This document shows, piece by piece, positions 7,718-16,688 of a stretch of 64,000 nt of DNA. Made by a program: the position numbers and the translations under genes. The stretch comes from a virus, in the IMG/VR virus record IMGVR_UViG_3300033816_000828, positions 1 through 64,000 of that record. One strand, 5' to 3'. The notes below the pieces were generated by a model, which saw only the letters and a program-made list of their open reading frames with translations, had not been told where the DNA came from and did no database searches. Each line of letters begins with the position of its first letter. Within the stretch, counting starts at the first letter, position 1.

Positions 7718-8130
7718 ATTTTTATGTTATCCTCATCTTTAGAATTATAAGATAATATCTGAACGTCTTTTAGATCCCACGAGTCGCTCACCTTTTTACT
7801 AATACATATATGATGCATACATGGGAAGTGATTCATTTGTTTTATTTTTTCATTATCATACAATGGATTTTTAATCGTATGATCAATTAATAATACTGGT
7901 AAGTGTAATTTTCTAGATAAGCTAGCACAGTCATTATGGAATTCTATTTTATTATTACAAATAATTAAGTTTGGAATATTATCGCCATAATATAGCTGGG
8001 AAAAATTCACTAATTCGCATCCGGCAGATTTAATAAAATCTTCGAATTCAGTATTAATTGGTGTCCATAAAACCTTAATTTTATCTGTAATTTTGAGTTG
8101 TTCTCTATATAGAATAGATGATACTATCAT
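7669..8130 (-). CDS. Hypothetical protein (possible GT-B N-terminal fragment)
   Basis: PNLIICN...LHLPVLLIDH...ICISK..SDSW. Confidence 0.45.
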   Translation of the reverse strand: MIVSSILYREQLKITDKIKVLWTPINTEFEDFIKSAGCELVNFSQLYYGDNIPNLIICNNKIEFHNDCASLSRKLHLPVLLIDHTIKNPLYDNEKIKQMNHFPCMHHICISKKVSDSWDLKDVQILSYNSKDEDNIKIWQNLLFQITKKMFKI

Positions 8131-9230
8131 GGTATTAGCTTTTCTATAAATTTATATGAAAAAATTTCTTTATCAAATGCTTGTTGTAATTCTTGTTTTT
8201 GTGTTAATGATAGATTATATGCTTTACGCATATTAGTTCTTAGCTCATTAATAGATGGCTCAAGCCATTTCTCGTACATTGTAAAAATATTCTTAATCAT
8301 AGTATTTGAACATAATACGGGAACTTCTGTACTATTAATCATTAAAGCGTTAGTAGAATTAAAATATGTATTAGATCCTATATTTTTAGTATTAATAACC
8401 ACACTGTTGCATAGAGCAGCCTCTATAGAGTTATCGCCAAAGCTATCTGCTCTAGCAAAATTAATATAACAATCGCAGGATTGATGGAGTCTTATTATAT
8501 CATTATCAGACAAATATCCACACAACACGTCAACATCTGGATAATGATCATTAGGTTTTCTAATAATATTTTTAATATTAGACATATCATATTTAACAAT
8601 ATGCTCTAGATCTTCGTTGGTTTTTCTGTGATCATATGTCTTAATAAATAGCTTTACATTGTCTTGTTTATTAAATTCTAATAAATAAGCCATAATTATA
8701 CTTTTAATATTTTTTTTCTCAGTATATTGACCTATGGTATAGAATATAAATGGATTCTCATGATAACCGAAAAAACCATCCCTTTTATTGCTATATGTTT
8801 GTAGATTATATGGTTCTGGTATAATTTTTATTGGGGCTGTTAATCCGCTAGAAATTAAACTGTTAGCAGAAAATTGTGAACCTGTCCATACTTCGTCCAT
8901 CAAATTTAATTTATCTATCCATCCAGAGTGTTTGATATTCAAAGTTTCAATATCAGTAATGGCTATATTTTTACCAAAATTACTATTATATTCAATATAC
9001 TCTGGTAGTATGTGTTGTATTAAAGTGTCATATGTTTTAAATGTATTGACTTCATATTCTTTGTATGTATCAGTACTTGTTTGTTTAGCAATTAAATTTT
9101 GTGTAACATATATTGGTCTGATAGCTAAATTATATTTTGGATTATTAGATAAATACTGTATATATCTTTTACAGGATGCCCCTAGTCCATTGTTATCATA
9201 ATATTGACCGATATATAAAATATTTTTCAT
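8127..9230 (-). CDS. Glycosyltransferase family 4 (GT-B)
   Basis: FYTIGQYTEKKN, DCYINFARADSFGDNSIEAA. Confidence 0.8.
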   Translation of the reverse strand: MKNILYIGQYYDNNGLGASCKRYIQYLSNNPKYNLAIRPIYVTQNLIAKQTSTDTYKEYEVNTFKTYDTLIQHILPEYIEYNSNFGKNIAITDIETLNIKHSGWIDKLNLMDEVWTGSQFSANSLISSGLTAPIKIIPEPYNLQTYSNKRDGFFGYHENPFIFYTIGQYTEKKNIKSIIMAYLLEFNKQDNVKLFIKTYDHRKTNEDLEHIVKYDMSNIKNIIRKPNDHYPDVDVLCGYLSDNDIIRLHQSCDCYINFARADSFGDNSIEAALCNSVVINTKNIGSNTYFNSTNALMINSTEVPVLCSNTMIKNIFTMYEKWLEPSINELRTNMRKAYNLSLTQKQELQQAFDKEIFSYKFIEKLIP

Positions 9231-10861
9231 TATTTACTATATCCAATAATATCTTTAAATGCATCTGGTAAAGAACTCGAACCCGTTACTCTAACAGTTT
9301 CTATAGATACTTTATTTTTAGCATATGTTTCCAATATTTTAATATAATTTTCAATATTAAAGACAAATTGTTTTGTGCCATTTTGAACAAATCCATCATT
9401 AGCACTCCTAATTAGTTCTTCAATAAAATAAGTATTTTTTAGATACGGCTCTTGAATAATATTATCTATAATATCATATATACAAGTTCTATGATCTGAT
9501 ACTCCACTAATGCTATATGACATATTAATTTGTCTCTGAGGAGCATCCCAAGGAATCTTTGATGAAACATCTACGCTGTCAAATATGGTTTCAAATGTTT
9601 TTGCTGTCTTGTCCCAATGATAATTTTGTAGACATTTTTTTCTACAACCATCGCCTATTTTATTTAATTCGTTTATTGGCATATTCATATACCGTTCTAA
9701 TATAGAGTACAGATGATCATTATTTGGATATGATCTTTTAGCATTAGTTTCTTGCTCTCTAAATACTCTACACACATCAACTAATTCAGCGTTGATATTT
9801 TTTCCAACTTCTCCCATAGCCTCGCTATTTATACTAATAATAGGATTTTTGCATGCGGCAGCTTCTACAGGAGGAATTCCAAAACCTTCACAAATAGCAT
9901 ATTGAACATATACATCAAATAAATTATATATATCGCACAACTGATCCTCTGATACACTATTTCTTAAACTTGCTATAAATGCACTATTTTGATTACAATG
10001 TCTACAAACAGAACGAACACCCTGAAAAACACTAGGAAAAATTTTATGACAATTTTTGCATATGTGTGTTAGTAAAACTTTATCTGCTATTTTATACTCT
10101 AATAGCAGAGACGGAAGATCCCACATTAATGCATCGGGATAAGATGTGTGCAAGTATAATAATATATTCTTATCTAAATTGTTGTGTCTTAATTTACTAA
10201 ATACTTCTAAAATATCAGGAATCAGTTTGCGTTTTTGATTCCTCATTACAGATCCAATAACAAATGAATCTGGAGGTATATCGTATTTAATTTTATGAAA
10301 TCTTTTACTATATCCTATTGGCTTATAAACATTATGATCTACGGCGTCATTAACTATTGGACCAAGATTTTGATGAGGATAATGAAATTTATTAAGCAGA
10401 TCCTGCTTGGCCCATTCGGTATGAAAACATACAAGATCAGCATTACCAAATAGATTCAAGGTTTCCAGTTTTTGTGGAGATGAATCGTAGGTTGGTCCTA
10501 TAATCCAATTATAAAAAGGTCTTAATACTGATGTTTCTTGATATGTAAAATTCCAAAAGTCTCTGATATCAAAAACAATATGAGGCTTAAAATCTAATAA
10601 TACCCAATCAAATACTAATTGTCCAAACTGGTTAGCATCATTACCAATATAGTCTTTATATAATGGATGATTGGTTGGTACGGCCGCCGGATATACTGTC
10701 CAAGGTTCTGTTTTTGATACTGAACTATCTCTATAACAAGATAATTCTGCTATTTCGTATTTGCCAGTATCATGTAATCTTTGTAGAATATTTTTAGTGT
10801 AGTTACCAAATCCAGAAGTAATATGGCTGGATTCTCCACACATAAGTATTCTTTTTTTCAT
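9230..10861 (-). CDS. Glycosyltransferase family 4 with inserted Zn-finger
   Basis: SGFG, RNQKRK, DVYVQYAICEGFGIPPVEAAAC; CKNC...CRHC insertion; ATG at 10861 preferred over TTG at 10885, which lies in the terminator. Confidence 0.85.
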   Translation of the reverse strand: MKKRILMCGESSHITSGFGNYTKNILQRLHDTGKYEIAELSCYRDSSVSKTEPWTVYPAAVPTNHPLYKDYIGNDANQFGQLVFDWVLLDFKPHIVFDIRDFWNFTYQETSVLRPFYNWIIGPTYDSSPQKLETLNLFGNADLVCFHTEWAKQDLLNKFHYPHQNLGPIVNDAVDHNVYKPIGYSKRFHKIKYDIPPDSFVIGSVMRNQKRKLIPDILEVFSKLRHNNLDKNILLYLHTSYPDALMWDLPSLLLEYKIADKVLLTHICKNCHKIFPSVFQGVRSVCRHCNQNSAFIASLRNSVSEDQLCDIYNLFDVYVQYAICEGFGIPPVEAAACKNPIISINSEAMGEVGKNINAELVDVCRVFREQETNAKRSYPNNDHLYSILERYMNMPINELNKIGDGCRKKCLQNYHWDKTAKTFETIFDSVDVSSKIPWDAPQRQINMSYSISGVSDHRTCIYDIIDNIIQEPYLKNTYFIEELIRSANDGFVQNGTKQFVFNIENYIKILETYAKNKVSIETVRVTGSSSLPDAFKDIIGYSK

Positions 10862-10883
10862 AAAATCTTTCAGAAAATAATAC

Positions 10884-10911
10884 AAAAAATCCCCGCCGTC
10901 CTAGCGAGGAT
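10884..10911 (-). terminator. Rho-independent terminator downstream of ssb
   Basis: Minus strand ATCCTCGC-loop-GCGGGGAT followed by a T run. Confidence 0.7.
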
Positions 10912-10930
10912 CTTTTGTACTTAGATAATT

Positions 10931-11308
10931 TCAGAATGCAGTAACGACTTCTGCTGGTTCCTTATCTTTCTTCTTACCATTACCACGATTTAACTTAGCA
11001 AAATTATTTACTCTAACCTTTAAAGTAGAGTGCTTTACTCCATCCTTTTCCCACGAGTCATTTCGTAAAGATCCTTCAACCATTACAAGATCACCCTTCT
11101 TCAGAGTATCGGCAATTGCTTCGGCACCACTGTCCCAAGCCTCACACTGAACAAAAGTAGTAATTTTATCAGTGTCACCGTTTTGTTTAGTAAACTCTCT
11201 AGAAGTTGCTACTGTAAAATTAACAACAGATGTTGACTTGTTGCTAGCATTAACAGTTCTGAGTTCCGGATCACGAGCCAAATTTCCACGCAAAATAACA
11301 AGATTCAT
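10931..11308 (-). CDS. ssb: Single-stranded DNA-binding protein
   Basis: MNLVILRGNLARDPELR, CEAW, KKGDLVMVEGSL; C-terminal F. Confidence 0.95.
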   Translation of the reverse strand: MNLVILRGNLARDPELRTVNASNKSTSVVNFTVATSREFTKQNGDTDKITTFVQCEAWDSGAEAIADTLKKGDLVMVEGSLRNDSWEKDGVKHSTLKVRVNNFAKLNRGNGKKKDKEPAEVVTAF

Positions 11309-11346
11309 AAATATCTCCTTTTTGAAGTAAAACCAACTCTATAGAT

Positions 11347-11374
11347 ATAGTAGCCACAGACCATGAGGTGTCAA
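11347..11374 (-). promoter_or_regulatory. sigma70-like promoter for ssb
   Basis: TTGACA-16 nt-TACTAT upstream of an AAGGAG RBS. Confidence 0.6.
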
Positions 11375-12907
11375 CTAGATTTGCCAACACTTCTTTACAA
11401 AAATTGAGTCTTTATTTTTTGATTGTTCCAAACTAAACATTACAGTATTCCCTTCATATAAGATATTTCTTATGTTATCAAATTCTTTTGGAAATACAAT
11501 AATATCAGCAGAACCTGTTCCATCGCTTATTTTTATAAATGCCATTTCTTGACCAGGGTTTTTTCCCTTTTTTGTTTTTACAATATTAATATTAGCTATT
11601 TCTGATGCTATTAGAATATTTTTAGGTAACACTCTGTCTCTGTTGAGCCTTTGACAGTCACAATTAGCCGCTTCTGTATTTCTGGCGTCTATAATAGAAC
11701 AGGTAATCGCTATTCCTAATAGTTGTTTTTCAGTATTTGCTATCCATTCATAATTATCATCCAAGCTATATGCGGGCGCTTCTAAAGCATTGATCAGTGA
11801 TAATATAACTTCTTTTCTTCTTTTATTTGTACTATCTTTGACCTTATGTAAAATATCAATTAGTGTTGAGTTTAGATCTATATTATTAATAATTATTTCT
11901 TTTTCTCTATTGCTCAGATGTGATATTGTGTCTAAGTAAAATAGGATTTTTTTTCTAGAAATTTTCAAATAATCAAATGCTCCAACAGATATTAAATTTT
12001 TAGCTGCTGTTGAATTGATTTTATCCAGAATCCAGAATAATATCTCGTTTAGGCACATGTTAGATATTTCCAGATTATTGTTTTGGATTATATCCTTAAT
12101 TTTATTAAATACAGACTCTCCAACACCCTTTATATTTGTAAAACCAAAATAAATTATATCATCAATTAATTCAAACTCTTTATTCATTTTGGTGAAATCG
12201 GGTCTGTATATTCTAATATTATGTTCAATAGCATTATTTCCAAGATCGTTGATTTCTCTCATGGGGTCGATTTTATCTTTTGCGAACCTTAAATAAGATG
12301 TAAAAAATTGAAGTGGAAAATGAGCTTTTGCATATGCTGATACATAAGCATTAAGAGCATAACTAATAGCATGACTCTTATTAAAAGAGTATCTTTGACT
12401 TTTTTCTATCCAACTAAATATCTGCTCTGCTTCTGACTCATTAACCATATTAGTCTCTTTGCTTTTTTGTATAAACAAAGTTTTAATCTTGGCCATTTCT
12501 TGCGGATTTTTTTTGCCAATAGCTTTTCTCAACATGTCCGCTTCTGATAAATTGAAACTAGCAATTTTTTGACAAATTTGCATAGCCTGTTCTTGATAAA
12601 CCATTTCCCCGAATGTTTCAGACAAAATGGATTCCAAAGACTCATGAAAGTAGTCGATAGATTCTTTATTATTCTTTTTGTCTATATAATGGTTACTAAC
12701 AGTTTTACCATCCCTAACGGCTTCTAAGCATCCTGGTCTTAGGATACTAATAAGAGCAGCTAACTGCTCAATATTTTGTGGTTTCAGTTTTTTGGACATA
12801 CTTTGTCCAAGTCTGGATTCTAATTGAAAGACACCCTTAGTGTCCCCACTACCAATAAGATCCCATGTTTTTGGACACGATAGATCAATATTTTCAAAGT
12901 CAATCAT
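11375..12907 (-). CDS. dnaE: DNA polymerase III alpha (DnaE), C-terminal half: fingers, HhH, OB
   Basis: GVFQLES, LRPG, MVYQEQ, ADMLRKAIGKK, YSFNKSHA, IKGVG, MAFIKISD.TG. Confidence 0.92.
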   Translation of the reverse strand: MIDFENIDLSCPKTWDLIGSGDTKGVFQLESRLGQSMSKKLKPQNIEQLAALISILRPGCLEAVRDGKTVSNHYIDKKNNKESIDYFHESLESILSETFGEMVYQEQAMQICQKIASFNLSEADMLRKAIGKKNPQEMAKIKTLFIQKSKETNMVNESEAEQIFSWIEKSQRYSFNKSHAISYALNAYVSAYAKAHFPLQFFTSYLRFAKDKIDPMREINDLGNNAIEHNIRIYRPDFTKMNKEFELIDDIIYFGFTNIKGVGESVFNKIKDIIQNNNLEISNMCLNEILFWILDKINSTAAKNLISVGAFDYLKISRKKILFYLDTISHLSNREKEIIINNIDLNSTLIDILHKVKDSTNKRRKEVILSLINALEAPAYSLDDNYEWIANTEKQLLGIAITCSIIDARNTEAANCDCQRLNRDRVLPKNILIASEIANINIVKTKKGKNPGQEMAFIKISDGTGSADIIVFPKEFDNIRNILYEGNTVMFSLEQSKNKDSIFVKKCWQI

Positions 12908-13614
12908 TGAGCTGAATTTAGAAATGAGTCTTTAAATTTTATTTTGGAACCTACATTACGATGTAGTCGTAAAAATCTAATTAAAATATTTGCACAGTCC
13001 TTAACATCTTTTGTTGCATCATGAGCATTAGTTTTGTCTATACCTAAATAGTCTCTTAGATTATCTAGTGCTAATGATTTAATATCTGATATGTTTTCAA
13101 ACCATAACCAACTAACAGCCATTAAATCTATTTGATCTCTTGGATGAAATAAGTCGGTATTATTTTCTTTATTTGTATTATTGTATTTCTGGCTTAAACG
13201 ATTGATAATTTTCATATCAAATCTAATAATATTATAGCCACAAGCTATAGGAGCAGAAAACTGACTTTTGGATTTTCTAATATTAGTGTGGTAATTGTCC
13301 AAATAATTAACAAATTGATTCCAACTATATTTTTGTTCTGGATATTTTACCCAAGAATCAAATATATTCTCTTTGGTAGTATTTTTAATTTTAGCATGCC
13401 ACTCTAATATATCACTATCATTATAGAGACTGATATCAGGAGTCTTTGTATTTTCTATTCTTTCTGGCCTTAGAAATACATTAAACTCTGAATCTTTTAT
13501 AATTTCTAATCTGTGAGTATCTACAATTACAGCAGATAGCTGAACAGGACTACATACCGACGGATCAGAACCATCGGTTTCAAAATCGAACACACAAATA
13601 TTATTAGTTATCAC
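12904..13614 (-). CDS. DEDDh 3'-5' exonuclease (DnaQ/epsilon-like)
   Basis: VFDFETDG (ExoI), GYNIIRFD (ExoII), AHDATKD (ExoIII). Confidence 0.88.
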   Translation of the reverse strand: MITNNICVFDFETDGSDPSVCSPVQLSAVIVDTHRLEIIKDSEFNVFLRPERIENTKTPDISLYNDSDILEWHAKIKNTTKENIFDSWVKYPEQKYSWNQFVNYLDNYHTNIRKSKSQFSAPIACGYNIIRFDMKIINRLSQKYNNTNKENNTDLFHPRDQIDLMAVSWLWFENISDIKSLALDNLRDYLGIDKTNAHDATKDVKDCANILIRFLRLHRNVGSKIKFKDSFLNSAQ

Positions 13615-13783
13615 TATTGATTTTCTCTACTTCTTCAATTGGCTTGATCATTACTTTTTGGTTATTGCTGAGATTAACAGCATTTAAAGTTTTGCAACAT
13701 GATACTTTTTTGGGTTCGGTTTTAGTATATGTTGTATTTTTATATGTAAACTGATCTCCAACTGATAATTCTGAAAATTTCAT
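13604..13783 (-). CDS. 59-aa small protein absent from the ORF track
   Basis: MKFSELSVGDQFTYKNTTYTKTEPKKVSCCKTLNAVNLSNNQKVMIKPIEEVEKINSDN; ATGA overlap with the dnaE-N stop; fills the gap exactly. Confidence 0.7.
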   Translation of the reverse strand: MKFSELSVGDQFTYKNTTYTKTEPKKVSCCKTLNAVNLSNNQKVMIKPIEEVEKINSDN

Positions 13784-15654
13784 TTTTTATAACTCCCTAT
13801 TAATTGATTCACAAACATAATTTTGTCTAGCAATGCTATGCCTAGAATATCAAACTTTATTACTCCTAAACCGTCCAAATCATTCATTTCTAAACCAGCA
13901 ATATTTTGATTGGTTTTAGTATCAAAGATCATTGGACAAATTGAACCTAAAGGTTTAGCGGATATTGCCACTCCAGCAGCGTGTTTTGACTGATGAAATT
14001 TGGTTCCCTCCATTCTAATAGCTTGTTCAAACCTTTTGGCAAGTGGACCATTTAATTGTCCGTTTTCGTCAATTTGACACCATTCTTTAAATTTGTCTGG
14101 ATCGTTCTCTAAAGCCCACTTTATAATAGACGCCGATCCTTCTTCTTCTTTAATTTCTTGTAATTCGTCAGCTATTTTAGCCTCGTCAGGAATATGTTTA
14201 GTAATATTATTCATCTCTTCAAAAGATATATTATCATGTACCCTTAAGACTTCTTTTAAAGCCCCTCGTCCTTTGAGAGTATTAAATGTAATCATTTGAG
14301 ATACTTTATCATGACCATATTTGTCTTTAATGTATTGAATAATAGTATCTCTTTGATTAATAGGAACGTCAACGTCAATATCTGGCATGGAGACTCTAGT
14401 TTTGGTATTACGACCAGCATTATAAAATCTTTCAAATAATAAATTATACTTTATAGGATCAATATTTGTAATACCTATTAAGTATGATACCAAGCAACCA
14501 GCAGCACTACCTCTACCCGGCCCAGGAATCCACCCTTTAGACCTCACAAATTCCAATATGTCTCGTACTATTAAAAAGTAGCTGGACAAACCCGCCGTTT
14601 CTAATACCTCTAGTTCGTACTTGATTCTGTCTATATATATTTGTTGATCGTTTTTATCAATTTTTTTGTCTATTTTTTGCTTCCATCCGTCACGGCATAA
14701 TTGTCTTAAATATTCTGATTCATTTTTGAATTCTTTGGGAAATATAAAATTGGGCAAAATATGTTGACCAAGAGGGGAAAATGCTTCACACGCCGAATCT
14801 ATCAAAAAAGTATTTTCTATCTCTTCTGTATCATAAAGCTGAGACACCGTATCATTATCTAATATATGGTATTTATCAGAATTAAAAAAATGATTAAATC
14901 CAGTATCGATATTAGATAAAATCTTTTTAGATATTTCTGGTAGTGTCGTTTTGAGAGAACTGCACAATACTATTCTCTGGTCAACATGGTCATCATTATT
15001 ACAGTAGTAACTATCTATACCAGCAATACGCCTCCAATTTTCTTGTTTGCATAGTAATCGGAATTCTTCCATAACATTTAATTGATTATAATAGTCATTA
15101 AATAATTGTATCTCTATAAACACATTTTCTTCACCAAAAATACTATTCAATTGCTCAATATGATGTTTTGCTATATTTTCCCAATCTAATTTCAATTGAT
15201 TATCAGAGGTTGTATTCTTCCACAAAGAAGATCCATAATATCCAGTAATACATATTAAAGAATCATTATCTACTAATTTTTGTAGATTTTCTAAATCTAT
15301 TCTTGGTTTTTTGTGAAAAAATTGTTCCGAGTTAGTTTGTGATACTATATTAATCAGGCTTTGCCATCCCTTTAGATTTTTACATAAGATAGTAATCTTT
15401 GACAAAGATTCGTTTTCAGTATTTTTTATAGAAGCATCATGATCAGTAATAAAAATTTCACAACCTAAAATTGGTTTAATATTATTTGCTGTCATTTCTT
15501 TATAAAAAGCTATGGCTCCTGAGATATTGCCACTATCTGTTAAGGCGCAACTTTTTATACCAAGAGACAAGCATCTATCAGATATATCTTTAGGTTTAGA
15601 TAAGCCTAATTGTAAACTATAATGAGAATGAACGTGTAATGGAATATATGACAT
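13780..15654 (-). CDS. dnaE: DNA polymerase III alpha (DnaE), N-terminal half: PHP, palm, thumb
   Basis: LHVHSHYS, IKPILGCE, GPGRGSAAG, LLFERF, MPDIDVD, HAAGV, KFDILG. Confidence 0.93.
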   Translation of the reverse strand: MSYIPLHVHSHYSLQLGLSKPKDISDRCLSLGIKSCALTDSGNISGAIAFYKEMTANNIKPILGCEIFITDHDASIKNTENESLSKITILCKNLKGWQSLINIVSQTNSEQFFHKKPRIDLENLQKLVDNDSLICITGYYGSSLWKNTTSDNQLKLDWENIAKHHIEQLNSIFGEENVFIEIQLFNDYYNQLNVMEEFRLLCKQENWRRIAGIDSYYCNNDDHVDQRIVLCSSLKTTLPEISKKILSNIDTGFNHFFNSDKYHILDNDTVSQLYDTEEIENTFLIDSACEAFSPLGQHILPNFIFPKEFKNESEYLRQLCRDGWKQKIDKKIDKNDQQIYIDRIKYELEVLETAGLSSYFLIVRDILEFVRSKGWIPGPGRGSAAGCLVSYLIGITNIDPIKYNLLFERFYNAGRNTKTRVSMPDIDVDVPINQRDTIIQYIKDKYGHDKVSQMITFNTLKGRGALKEVLRVHDNISFEEMNNITKHIPDEAKIADELQEIKEEEGSASIIKWALENDPDKFKEWCQIDENGQLNGPLAKRFEQAIRMEGTKFHQSKHAAGVAISAKPLGSICPMIFDTKTNQNIAGLEMNDLDGLGVIKFDILGIALLDKIMFVNQLIGSYKK

Positions 15655-16688
15655 TATTCACCAGGAGCTTTATAAAATCCAAAAGTGTGATTTGGGTGTT
15701 TATAGTATTTTATCACAGAATCGATTCCTTGCAACTGTACATCATGAGCAATTTGTTCACATTTACACATTGTTTGTCCTTTTGGAGTAGACTCTCCATC
15801 CCTATATTCTTCTAATGGATAAATATTAGTATTTTCAAATGTGGTTTTGCCAAAATGGCATAACTTTTTACACATCCAGCTTTTATTAAGATATGGTCGT
15901 TTCACGGCTTTAATTTTATCAAACTTATCTCTTAGCATTTGTTCAGTTTTTATTAGATCTGATTTTTGGAAACACATAGAAAACGGCCCGCCATCATTTA
16001 TAAAATTGATTGTAATCATAATATTGTCTATATTAGGATATAGATGGCTTACAGCATAATGATATATTCTTAGTTGTGGATCATTTTCGAGACATTCTTG
16101 TGTTTTTTCTTTTCCTGTCGCCCAGTTTAATCTTCTTCCTGTTTTCCAATCTATAATTTCAAAAAAATTATCATCAATTTGTGTGATTAAATCTATCGTG
16201 CCTTTTAAGGCTAAATTTCCTTCTAGTACTCCATCTTCAGTATCATATGAATATTTTGCCCAAGGCTTATCTATGATAAAATCAAAATGTTGTTCTGGAC
16301 AAATTATATTCCGATTGCGAGGATCAAACATACCATTATTAAATTCTAATGTTTTATTAACCCACTTTAAGCAATCTTCCTTATCTTTATCTTTCCATTG
16401 ATGATGACTATTATTTTTTGTGTAATGGTTATATACGATATCAAATATATCTGATATACTATAATTATTAATATTAATTATTCCAGCAATATCATCAGTA
16501 AAAAGAGTATTTTTATTTTGTTCTGTTTGTTTAATAAATGCTAGTATTTCTAGTACTTTATGTACTATGGTTCCCTTATCTGCTTTTTGATTTGATGGAC
16601 CTCTCCACCCAAGCACATACTCTATAAAGTATTGCTGCTCACATAAGCTATGAGTATTGAATGACGAGCTACGAAAATATGTTATTAT
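15654..16688 (-). CDS. Cas4/AddB-like PD-(D/E)XK exonuclease with predicted Fe-S cluster
   Basis: GTIVHKVLE, GTIDLI, IIDWKTG, QLRIY, CKKLC; the frame stays open upstream of GTG 16616 and adds SSFNTHSLCEQQYF, so an ATA start at about 16688 is likely. Confidence 0.8.
   Translation of the reverse strand: MITYFRSSSFNTHSLCEQQYFIEYVLGWRGPSNQKADKGTIVHKVLEILAFIKQTEQNKNTLFTDDIAGIININNYSISDIFDIVYNHYTKNNSHHQWKDKDKEDCLKWVNKTLEFNNGMFDPRNRNIICPEQHFDFIIDKPWAKYSYDTEDGVLEGNLALKGTIDLITQIDDNFFEIIDWKTGRRLNWATGKEKTQECLENDPQLRIYHYAVSHLYPNIDNIMITINFINDGGPFSMCFQKSDLIKTEQMLRDKFDKIKAVKRPYLNKSWMCKKLCHFGKTTFENTNIYPLEEYRDGESTPKGQTMCKCEQIAHDVQLQGIDSVIKYYKHPNHTFGFYKAPGE

Follow-up and report, generated by a model that had tools for sequence, protein, structure and literature searches.

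What form does a replicative polymerase take when dnaE, the gene for the alpha subunit of DNA polymerase III (Pol III), lies in two pieces with other genes between them? The question is raised by IMGVR_UViG_3300033816_000828, an 80-kb linear IMG/VR virus record (~58% complete, ~31% G+C), of which positions 1-64,000 were analyzed and are referred to as the window. The source virus is a lake-water phage, and its relatives make up a large phage group that is abundant in fresh and marine waters. The split of dnaE is genuine, ancient and widespread. As the split is conserved and intein-free, with the catalytic Asp residues in the N-terminal product (dnaE-N), the fingers in the C-terminal product (dnaE-C) and no other polymerase recognized, the best reading is a non-covalent two-piece alpha: the phage probably encodes a naturally fissioned DnaE-type enzyme with its own proofreader. 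The elements of the locus are as follows (aa, amino acids):

13780..15654, minus strand: dnaE-N, 624 aa; PHP whose metal site is degenerate, palm (catalytic Asp residues in PDIDVD and KFD) and thumb
13604..13783, minus strand: S59, a 59-aa gene; predicted SH3-like beta-barrel with an invariant Cys-Cys pair
12904..13614, minus strand: EXO, a 236-aa DEDDh 3'-5' exonuclease that starts with GTG; candidate proofreading subunit
11375..12907, minus strand: dnaE-C, 510 aa; fingers (with FNKSH), HhH and OB fold
13780..13783, minus strand: ATGA overlap of the dnaE-N stop and the S59 start, read directly on this strand
12904..12907, minus strand: ATGA overlap of the EXO stop and the dnaE-C start; no clear Shine-Dalgarno sequence upstream

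The open reading frames (ORFs) were re-read, and the four genes, their end sequences and both ATGA overlaps are as described in a first-pass annotation made from the DNA letters. The dnaE-N and dnaE-C ORFs are 870 nt apart. S59 and EXO overlap by 11 nt, with the EXO GTG start (at 13614) in agreement with the N termini of EXO homologs, and all four genes are chained by start/stop overlaps.

The domains of alpha are not in a single polypeptide but in two ORFs, both here and in 57 related contigs, while PHP, PF07733 and PF17657 are present in the DnaE-type (C-family) order across the two products. In Pfam, dnaE-N is composed of PHP and the PF07733 palm/thumb module, and dnaE-C of the PF17657 fingers (entered at profile position 20), HhH and a weak match to OB. 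When aligned to the solved Taq alpha, residue 610 of the N product corresponds to Taq 626 and residue 2 of the C product to Taq 643; when aligned to the solved E. coli alpha, N 619 corresponds to 572 and C 3 to 585. The break maps to 640|643 of Taq alpha and ~577|583 of E. coli. Of the intact PHROG 405 profile, the N product spans 42-615 and the C product 623-1077, with only 616-622 uncovered, and positions 1-572 and 580-1022 of the TIGR00594 profile are provided by the N and C products, respectively. In intact relatives (41-57% identity to the halves), the chain is continuous through the same variable linker. The earlier claim that essentially no sequence is missing is upheld by this alignment of both halves to E. 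coli and Taq DnaE, which had been proposed as a check; judged from the aligned profiles, the break leaves a few linker residues missing at most.

The residues of the active site are distributed over both products. Catalytic D425, D427 and D602 are all in dnaE-N and are invariant in 26 homologs, while the fingers FNKSH motif is in dnaE-C (residues 173-179), with F175, N176, S178 and H179 invariant (24-26 homologs aligned). The dnaE-C product also has a conserved PPYSLxD motif before the OB fold and ends after this fold. The gene thus appears to be cut in a variable linker between palm and fingers, where the N product would supply PHP, the palm with all three catalytic Asp residues and the thumb, and the C product would supply the dNTP-binding fingers with FNKSH, HhH and OB. 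Neither half is expected to polymerize alone; thus, the two polypeptides would have to assemble, and are predicted to do so non-covalently to form the phage replicase. An alternative is that the products perform separate jobs and are not one enzyme, e.g., the N product as a PHP nuclease or nucleotidyltransferase and the C product as a DNA- or clamp-binding factor. Cargo genes that part EXO and dnaE-C by ~3 kb in two relatives (L026 and L088) would suit such a division, as would another split 'minimal' Pol III that is encoded by distant genes (Iyer et al., PMC7824862). However, a single N half and a single C half are present in each complete genome, the two always share one gene cluster with an unchanged order, the catalytic Asp residues are carried by one product and the dNTP-binding fingers by the other, and the corresponding sequence of intact relatives is a single chain; separate jobs are considered very unlikely.

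The halves might also be rejoined in some way, with a cryptic split intein, RNA splicing or a translational bypass of the 870-nt gap as candidate routes. Both this gene family and the genome itself commonly contain inteins, and the dnaE genes of cyanobacteria and of 'fractured' loci are rejoined by split inteins (PMC2677866). In relatives of the window, inteins are in-frame and at three or more other sites of the C half (residues ~56-63, 102-129 and 175-178; Pfam PF14890 and PF14528). Such in-frame inteins, some with LAGLIDADG, are observed in L021, L022, L032 and L033 (C-half ORFs of 755-779 aa) and in P0042, P0048 and P0142-P0154; in addition, the palm of the intact L052 dnaE is interrupted by an in-frame insertion of 1.2 kb (L052:2626-3866). 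The C-half site at ~175 is the cyanobacterial split-intein site and is uninterrupted in the window. Pfam detects no Hint/intein domain in the four products, neither broken end has residues to spare, and a covariance scan of 11000-16000 against Rfam finds no intron family at E <= 1, with matches at chance level only. The proposal that the break, unlike that of cyanobacterial split-intein DnaE, has no intein is therefore retained on the basis of the missing Hint domain and the intact FNKSH site. The gap is instead occupied by two conserved genes under purifying selection, and by up to ~3.9 kb of unrelated genes in relatives, with the unrelated cargo excluding a splicing of the halves in those other clades. 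The spacing from the dnaE-N stop to the next start varies, which argues that there is no conserved recoding site. Rejoining of the halves is hardly credible on these grounds.

The split is likewise not an artefact of assembly. The stretch is present in 24 lake and freshwater metagenome runs, and contigs from three lake metagenome runs that are not flagged as the source bridge both junctions; none of these bridging contigs skips 12907-13780. Because contigs of other lake metagenome runs span both junctions, the assembly chimera that had been named as a means of refutation did not hold.

Conservation of the split extends far beyond the window. Among 87 related viral loci, EXO is between the N and C halves in 62 (57 distinct contigs, five having been fetched twice), while eight end after N-EXO, 10 end within or after the N half and seven are intact. 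The 57 distinct viral contigs keep the order N, (small ORF), EXO and C at 40-72% N identity; the split is not unique, and the gene order that was to be checked in related phage contigs is retained. A near-length search returned 3233 matches, the best 120 of which are all stand-alone C halves of ~506-545 aa (longer if an intein is present) on JGI, ENA, Logan and Tara contigs that reach 211 kb in length. After clustering at 50% identity, the best 150 clusters are also almost all stand-alone C halves. Of 274 related proteins that were classified, 196 begin at the break and 78 are intact, with the break position identical in all split forms. One locus, L033, has its N half in two frames (8001-8243 vs 8162-9859), suggestive of a frameshift or sequencing error. 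An intact-relative scan of metagenome contigs returned only an N-terminal fragment, and viral scans that used P0315 and P0303 gave either no match or split loci only. The isolates with the nearest EXO homologs (Bacteroides phage DAC19 and kin, and Chryseobacterium phage MA9V-3) have no adjoining DnaE halves; thus, no cultured phage with the arrangement was found in that collection.

The halves are also under purifying selection. When compared to relatives, nonsynonymous differences (pN) are far below synonymous differences (pS) in all four genes, with nonsynonymous to synonymous ratios (dN/dS) of 0.06-0.37 that are rough, as the synonymous sites are saturated. Four complete relatives (G001, G002, G003 and G005; 157-231 kb, two of the four with terminal repeats) each have one palm ORF (~630 aa) and exactly one fingers ORF (~514-547 aa), and no match to PolA, PolB or a beta clamp is found in these four genomes. 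The split alpha is the sole recognizable DNA polymerase of the four complete relatives; a host clamp or an unrecognized processivity factor may serve in these phages. A decaying or inactive split gene, with the phage replicated by the Pol III of its host, would be consistent with the lack of a detected phage beta clamp or clamp loader. This alternative is extremely unlikely, however, as the split has been maintained throughout a very large clade in which the active-site residues are invariant and pN is much lower than pS, and the phage carries its own DnaB, primase, single-stranded DNA-binding protein (SSB) and ribonucleotide reductase.

The exonuclease encoded in the gap is related to PF00929 (32.2 bits; cut-off 24) and to PHROG 192, 'DNA polymerase exonuclease subunit' (1e-22). 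The DEDDh residues of EXO (D10, E12, D133, H198 and D203) are invariant, and a C-terminal tail (KIKFKDSF) is conserved. No DnaQ equivalog is matched, and EXO is classified from its sequence as a distant DEDDh relative of epsilon. The linkage to dnaE does not depend on the split: EXO is directly upstream of intact dnaE in L047-L052 and ~2 kb downstream in L046, and EXO identity declines in parallel with DnaE identity across clades. The invariant catalytic residues and conserved linkage to dnaE, intact-dnaE relatives included, support a putative epsilon-like, proofreading role. Thus, of the epsilon-like subunit put forward in the first-pass annotation, the catalytic residues and the linkage are borne out, while the match to epsilon itself is weak. 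An origin by in-frame insertion of an exonuclease domain, as in PolC, was also considered and found no support, as no fused EXO or S59 segment is present in the 274 DnaE-family proteins.

The PHP domain provides a second line of evidence on the exonuclease. In the PHP part of the window dnaE-N (residues 7-216), the nine ligand positions are occupied by H H L S E K Y D Y, a loss of five. The same five are lost in a close subclade (L002, L003, L005, L006 and L030), whereas H H D H E H H D H is preserved in most of the remaining relatives, whether their dnaE is split or intact. With the full set retained in most of these, the loss is recent and is not an explanation of the split. In bacteria, PHP ligand loss or a variant PHP goes with a separate epsilon exonuclease (PMC3666897), and the PHP loss of the window fits, by analogy, this link between a variant PHP and a separate exonuclease. 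From the linkage and the decayed PHP site, EXO is most likely the proofreading partner of the two-piece alpha. Relatives with full PHP ligands and a DEDDh gene may have two exonuclease activities.

Several observations weigh against a two-piece alpha with its own proofreader. EXO is a poor match to the DnaQ chain of the PDB (E = 0.42), with ExoI and PolC-exo scoring better. Most relatives keep all nine PHP ligands yet carry EXO; thus, EXO is not simply a PHP replacement. In dnaE-C, no canonical QxxLF beta-clamp motif and no tau-binding C-terminal domain are recognized, and no second polymerase, beta clamp or clamp loader is found in the record of the window, which is incomplete (~58%). The heterodimeric alpha with its own subunits that was first proposed stands in so far as the split is real, intein-free, conserved, under purifying selection and in the sole polymerase, features from which association of the halves is inferred; a theta-like part is not supported.

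The theta-like assignment had been made for the 59-aa protein. Theta is a helical protein, whereas the AlphaFold2 (AF2) model of S59 is an all-beta SH3-like barrel (pLDDT 95), and sister clades replace S59 or lack it; the assignment is not supported. The fold matches of S59 in the PDB are generic only, and its best viral matches are uncharacterized small proteins of unrelated phages such as EP335 and N4. No Pfam or NCBIfam match is found for S59, PHROG matches are weak and to families of unknown function, and matches in the ESM Atlas are to viral hypothetical clusters only. Longer, fused forms of S59 were not found, which is weak evidence. With a dN/dS of 0.16-0.37 (rough), S59 is a real, conserved gene, while any role as a polymerase subunit is only putative. 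A complex prediction of the N product, EXO and S59 scored 0.08 with S59 as the partner (mark 0.32), and this says nothing for or against binding. The invariant Cys-Cys pair of S59 and the nearly invariant Cys11 of the C half may form a shared metal site or disulfide.

The S59 family occurs in loci with an N half at least 55% identical to that of the window. In many loci of the 44-48% clade (L035, L054, L056, L057, L059, L063 and L067), an unrelated alpha+beta family (71-82 aa; AF2 pLDDT 88), for which Foldseek finds no match, stands in for S59; an AP2-like reading of this family, made by eye, was dropped for want of a Foldseek match. L064 and L065 have no small ORF between the N half and EXO, while L067 and L082 have extra ORFs at this position. 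Cargo genes are usually between EXO and dnaE-C, and the gap of relatives holds up to ~3.9 kb of unrelated genes:

L026:10731-13361, L035:8649-9425 and L088:10693-13757: cargo between EXO and dnaE-C; among it a ThyX-like, a pilin-like and a methyltransferase- or glycosyltransferase-like gene

Among these, a ThyX-like gene and others are in the gap of L026/L027, and a methyltransferase-like gene is in that of the 48% clade. The C half of sister subclades begins with a ~25-aa leader in which a CGC motif is conserved (alignment columns 1-27; e.g., L011:9218-9300 and L043:10740-10820); this leader is not present in the window.

The history of the split was examined by a C-region tree of 274 sequences. 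All split forms and 36 intact ones form one clade (support 0.98), for which the outgroups are intact. The intact forms of this clade are three or four nested subclades within the split forms, have 38-45% identity over the C half and have an EXO gene nearby. Two histories are suggested by these data: either one split was followed by several re-fusions, or an EXO cassette moved in or out more than once. The linker appears to have tolerated fission and fusion more than once, with the gap a landing place for cargo genes. An alternative to an adaptive origin is that the small ORF and EXO are a mobile or relocating cassette that landed in the dnaE linker, with the split a tolerated by-product; this is compatible with a two-piece alpha as the explanation of how the enzyme works. 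The nested intact forms are in its favor, as is an approximately unbiased (AU) test that rejects the split forms as one clade (p = 2e-7), although this test used a 71-row subset and a group defined after the tree was seen. EXO is also inside, upstream or downstream of dnaE by lineage, cargo genes accumulate in the gap, and one small ORF is exchanged for another from clade to clade. By contrast, the gap of the window has no homing endonuclease or intein and holds only S59 and the DEDDh exonuclease, EXO identity tracks DnaE identity, as vertical co-inheritance predicts, and the break position does not vary among split forms; a cassette origin is considered rather unlikely. That the split is adaptive, i.e., a two-chain C-family replicase with the proofreader and (in this clade) the SH3-like microprotein as added subunits and with repeated fission and re-fusion of the linker, is likewise rather unlikely. 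If it were, assembly of the halves could control replication, or could let the exonuclease dock in a way that an intact alpha cannot.

The neighboring elements place the two-piece alpha in a larger unit:

15654..16616, minus strand: PD-(D/E)XK-type exonuclease gene, upstream of dnaE-N
10931..11308, minus strand: ssb, directly downstream of dnaE-C; PHROG 44 at 6e-34
10879..10921, minus strand: strong terminator-like hairpin after ssb; 19-pair stem and T run

The stop of the PD-(D/E)XK-type nuclease gene and the dnaE-N start share a single nucleotide, 15654, and the four genes with this upstream gene appear to be translated as one coupled unit that is probably co-transcribed with ssb up to the terminator. 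The hairpin is the probable end of the transcription unit, while a promoter scan of the locus gave matches at chance level only. Stoichiometric production of the products, as first proposed, would follow from the overlapping stops and starts, which are its sole basis. Genes for a dNMP kinase, primase and DnaB are upstream of the split dnaE locus. In the window (8127-10885) as in the intact-dnaE relative L046 (11847-13517), ssb is followed by a large glycosyltransferase-like gene; thus, a dnaE-ssb-glycosyltransferase synteny seems to be kept across split and intact types, as judged by eye.

To our knowledge, descriptions of C-family polymerases are of single-chain enzymes in which the order PHP, palm, thumb, fingers is invariable, and the known natural splits of this family are either rejoined by inteins or limited to a minimal module. 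A search of the available literature library found no description of a full-length alpha that is cut between palm and fingers with an exonuclease gene in the gap. The locus is of significance as the full-length alpha, cut between the catalytic palm and the dNTP-binding fingers, is seemingly the only polymerase of a large aquatic phage group. Such an enzyme would provide a natural system for the assembly of palm and fingers in trans and for the recruitment of a proofreader, and indicates that a single linker can be the site of recurrent gene fission and fusion. Both halves are labeled 'DNA polymerase III subunit alpha' by current annotation pipelines, which leave the split unmarked. Among deposited Bacillus phages, dnaE is in pieces at other positions, with three in vB_BceM_WH1 (L091) and two in Jayan (L092); the gaps of WH1 (~400-700 nt) are unannotated, a 76-aa ORF is between the pieces of Jayan, and these look like introns or endonuclease inserts.

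Of the known systems, the E. coli Pol III core (alpha-epsilon-theta) is similar in that its alpha has a degenerate PHP and works with a DEDDh exonuclease on a separate chain (PMC3666897), and differs in that the window alpha would be two-chain, EXO is a distant epsilon relative and theta has no homolog. Cyanobacterial split-intein DnaE (PRK09532/PRK07373) is also encoded by two genes; however, it is split at FNKSH (C-half residue ~175, intact here), has split-intein halves and is at separate loci. The 'fractured genes' of environmental phage-like DNA include three dnaE loci (Dassa et al. 2009, PMC2677866), which share with the window an aquatic metagenomic dnaE that is broken with a gene between the pieces, but carry split inteins and a free-standing homing endonuclease, neither of which is present here. 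In group 2.2 jumbo phages, the catalytic module of a C-family polymerase is also in two proteins, as a split 'minimal' Pol III alpha (Iyer et al. 2021, PMC7824862). This alpha is composed of the core nucleotidyltransferase and template-binding modules only and is encoded by distant genes beside a PolB, whereas the window has a full PHP-to-OB alpha as its sole polymerase. Aeromonas phages 25 and 44RR, which are related to T4, have an intein-less split PolB, gp43A/gp43B (Petrov et al. 2010, reviewed in PMC2988022), and the gp43A and gp43B of phage 25 co-purify and are active (PMC2988022). As in the window, a phage replicative polymerase is encoded by two adjacent cistrons with no intein. The gp43A/B enzyme is of the B-family, has its exonuclease in the same chain and is interrupted by an untranslated spacer or a seg homing endonuclease; by contrast, the window polymerase is of the C-family and is cut between palm and fingers, and its insert is a proofreader-type gene.

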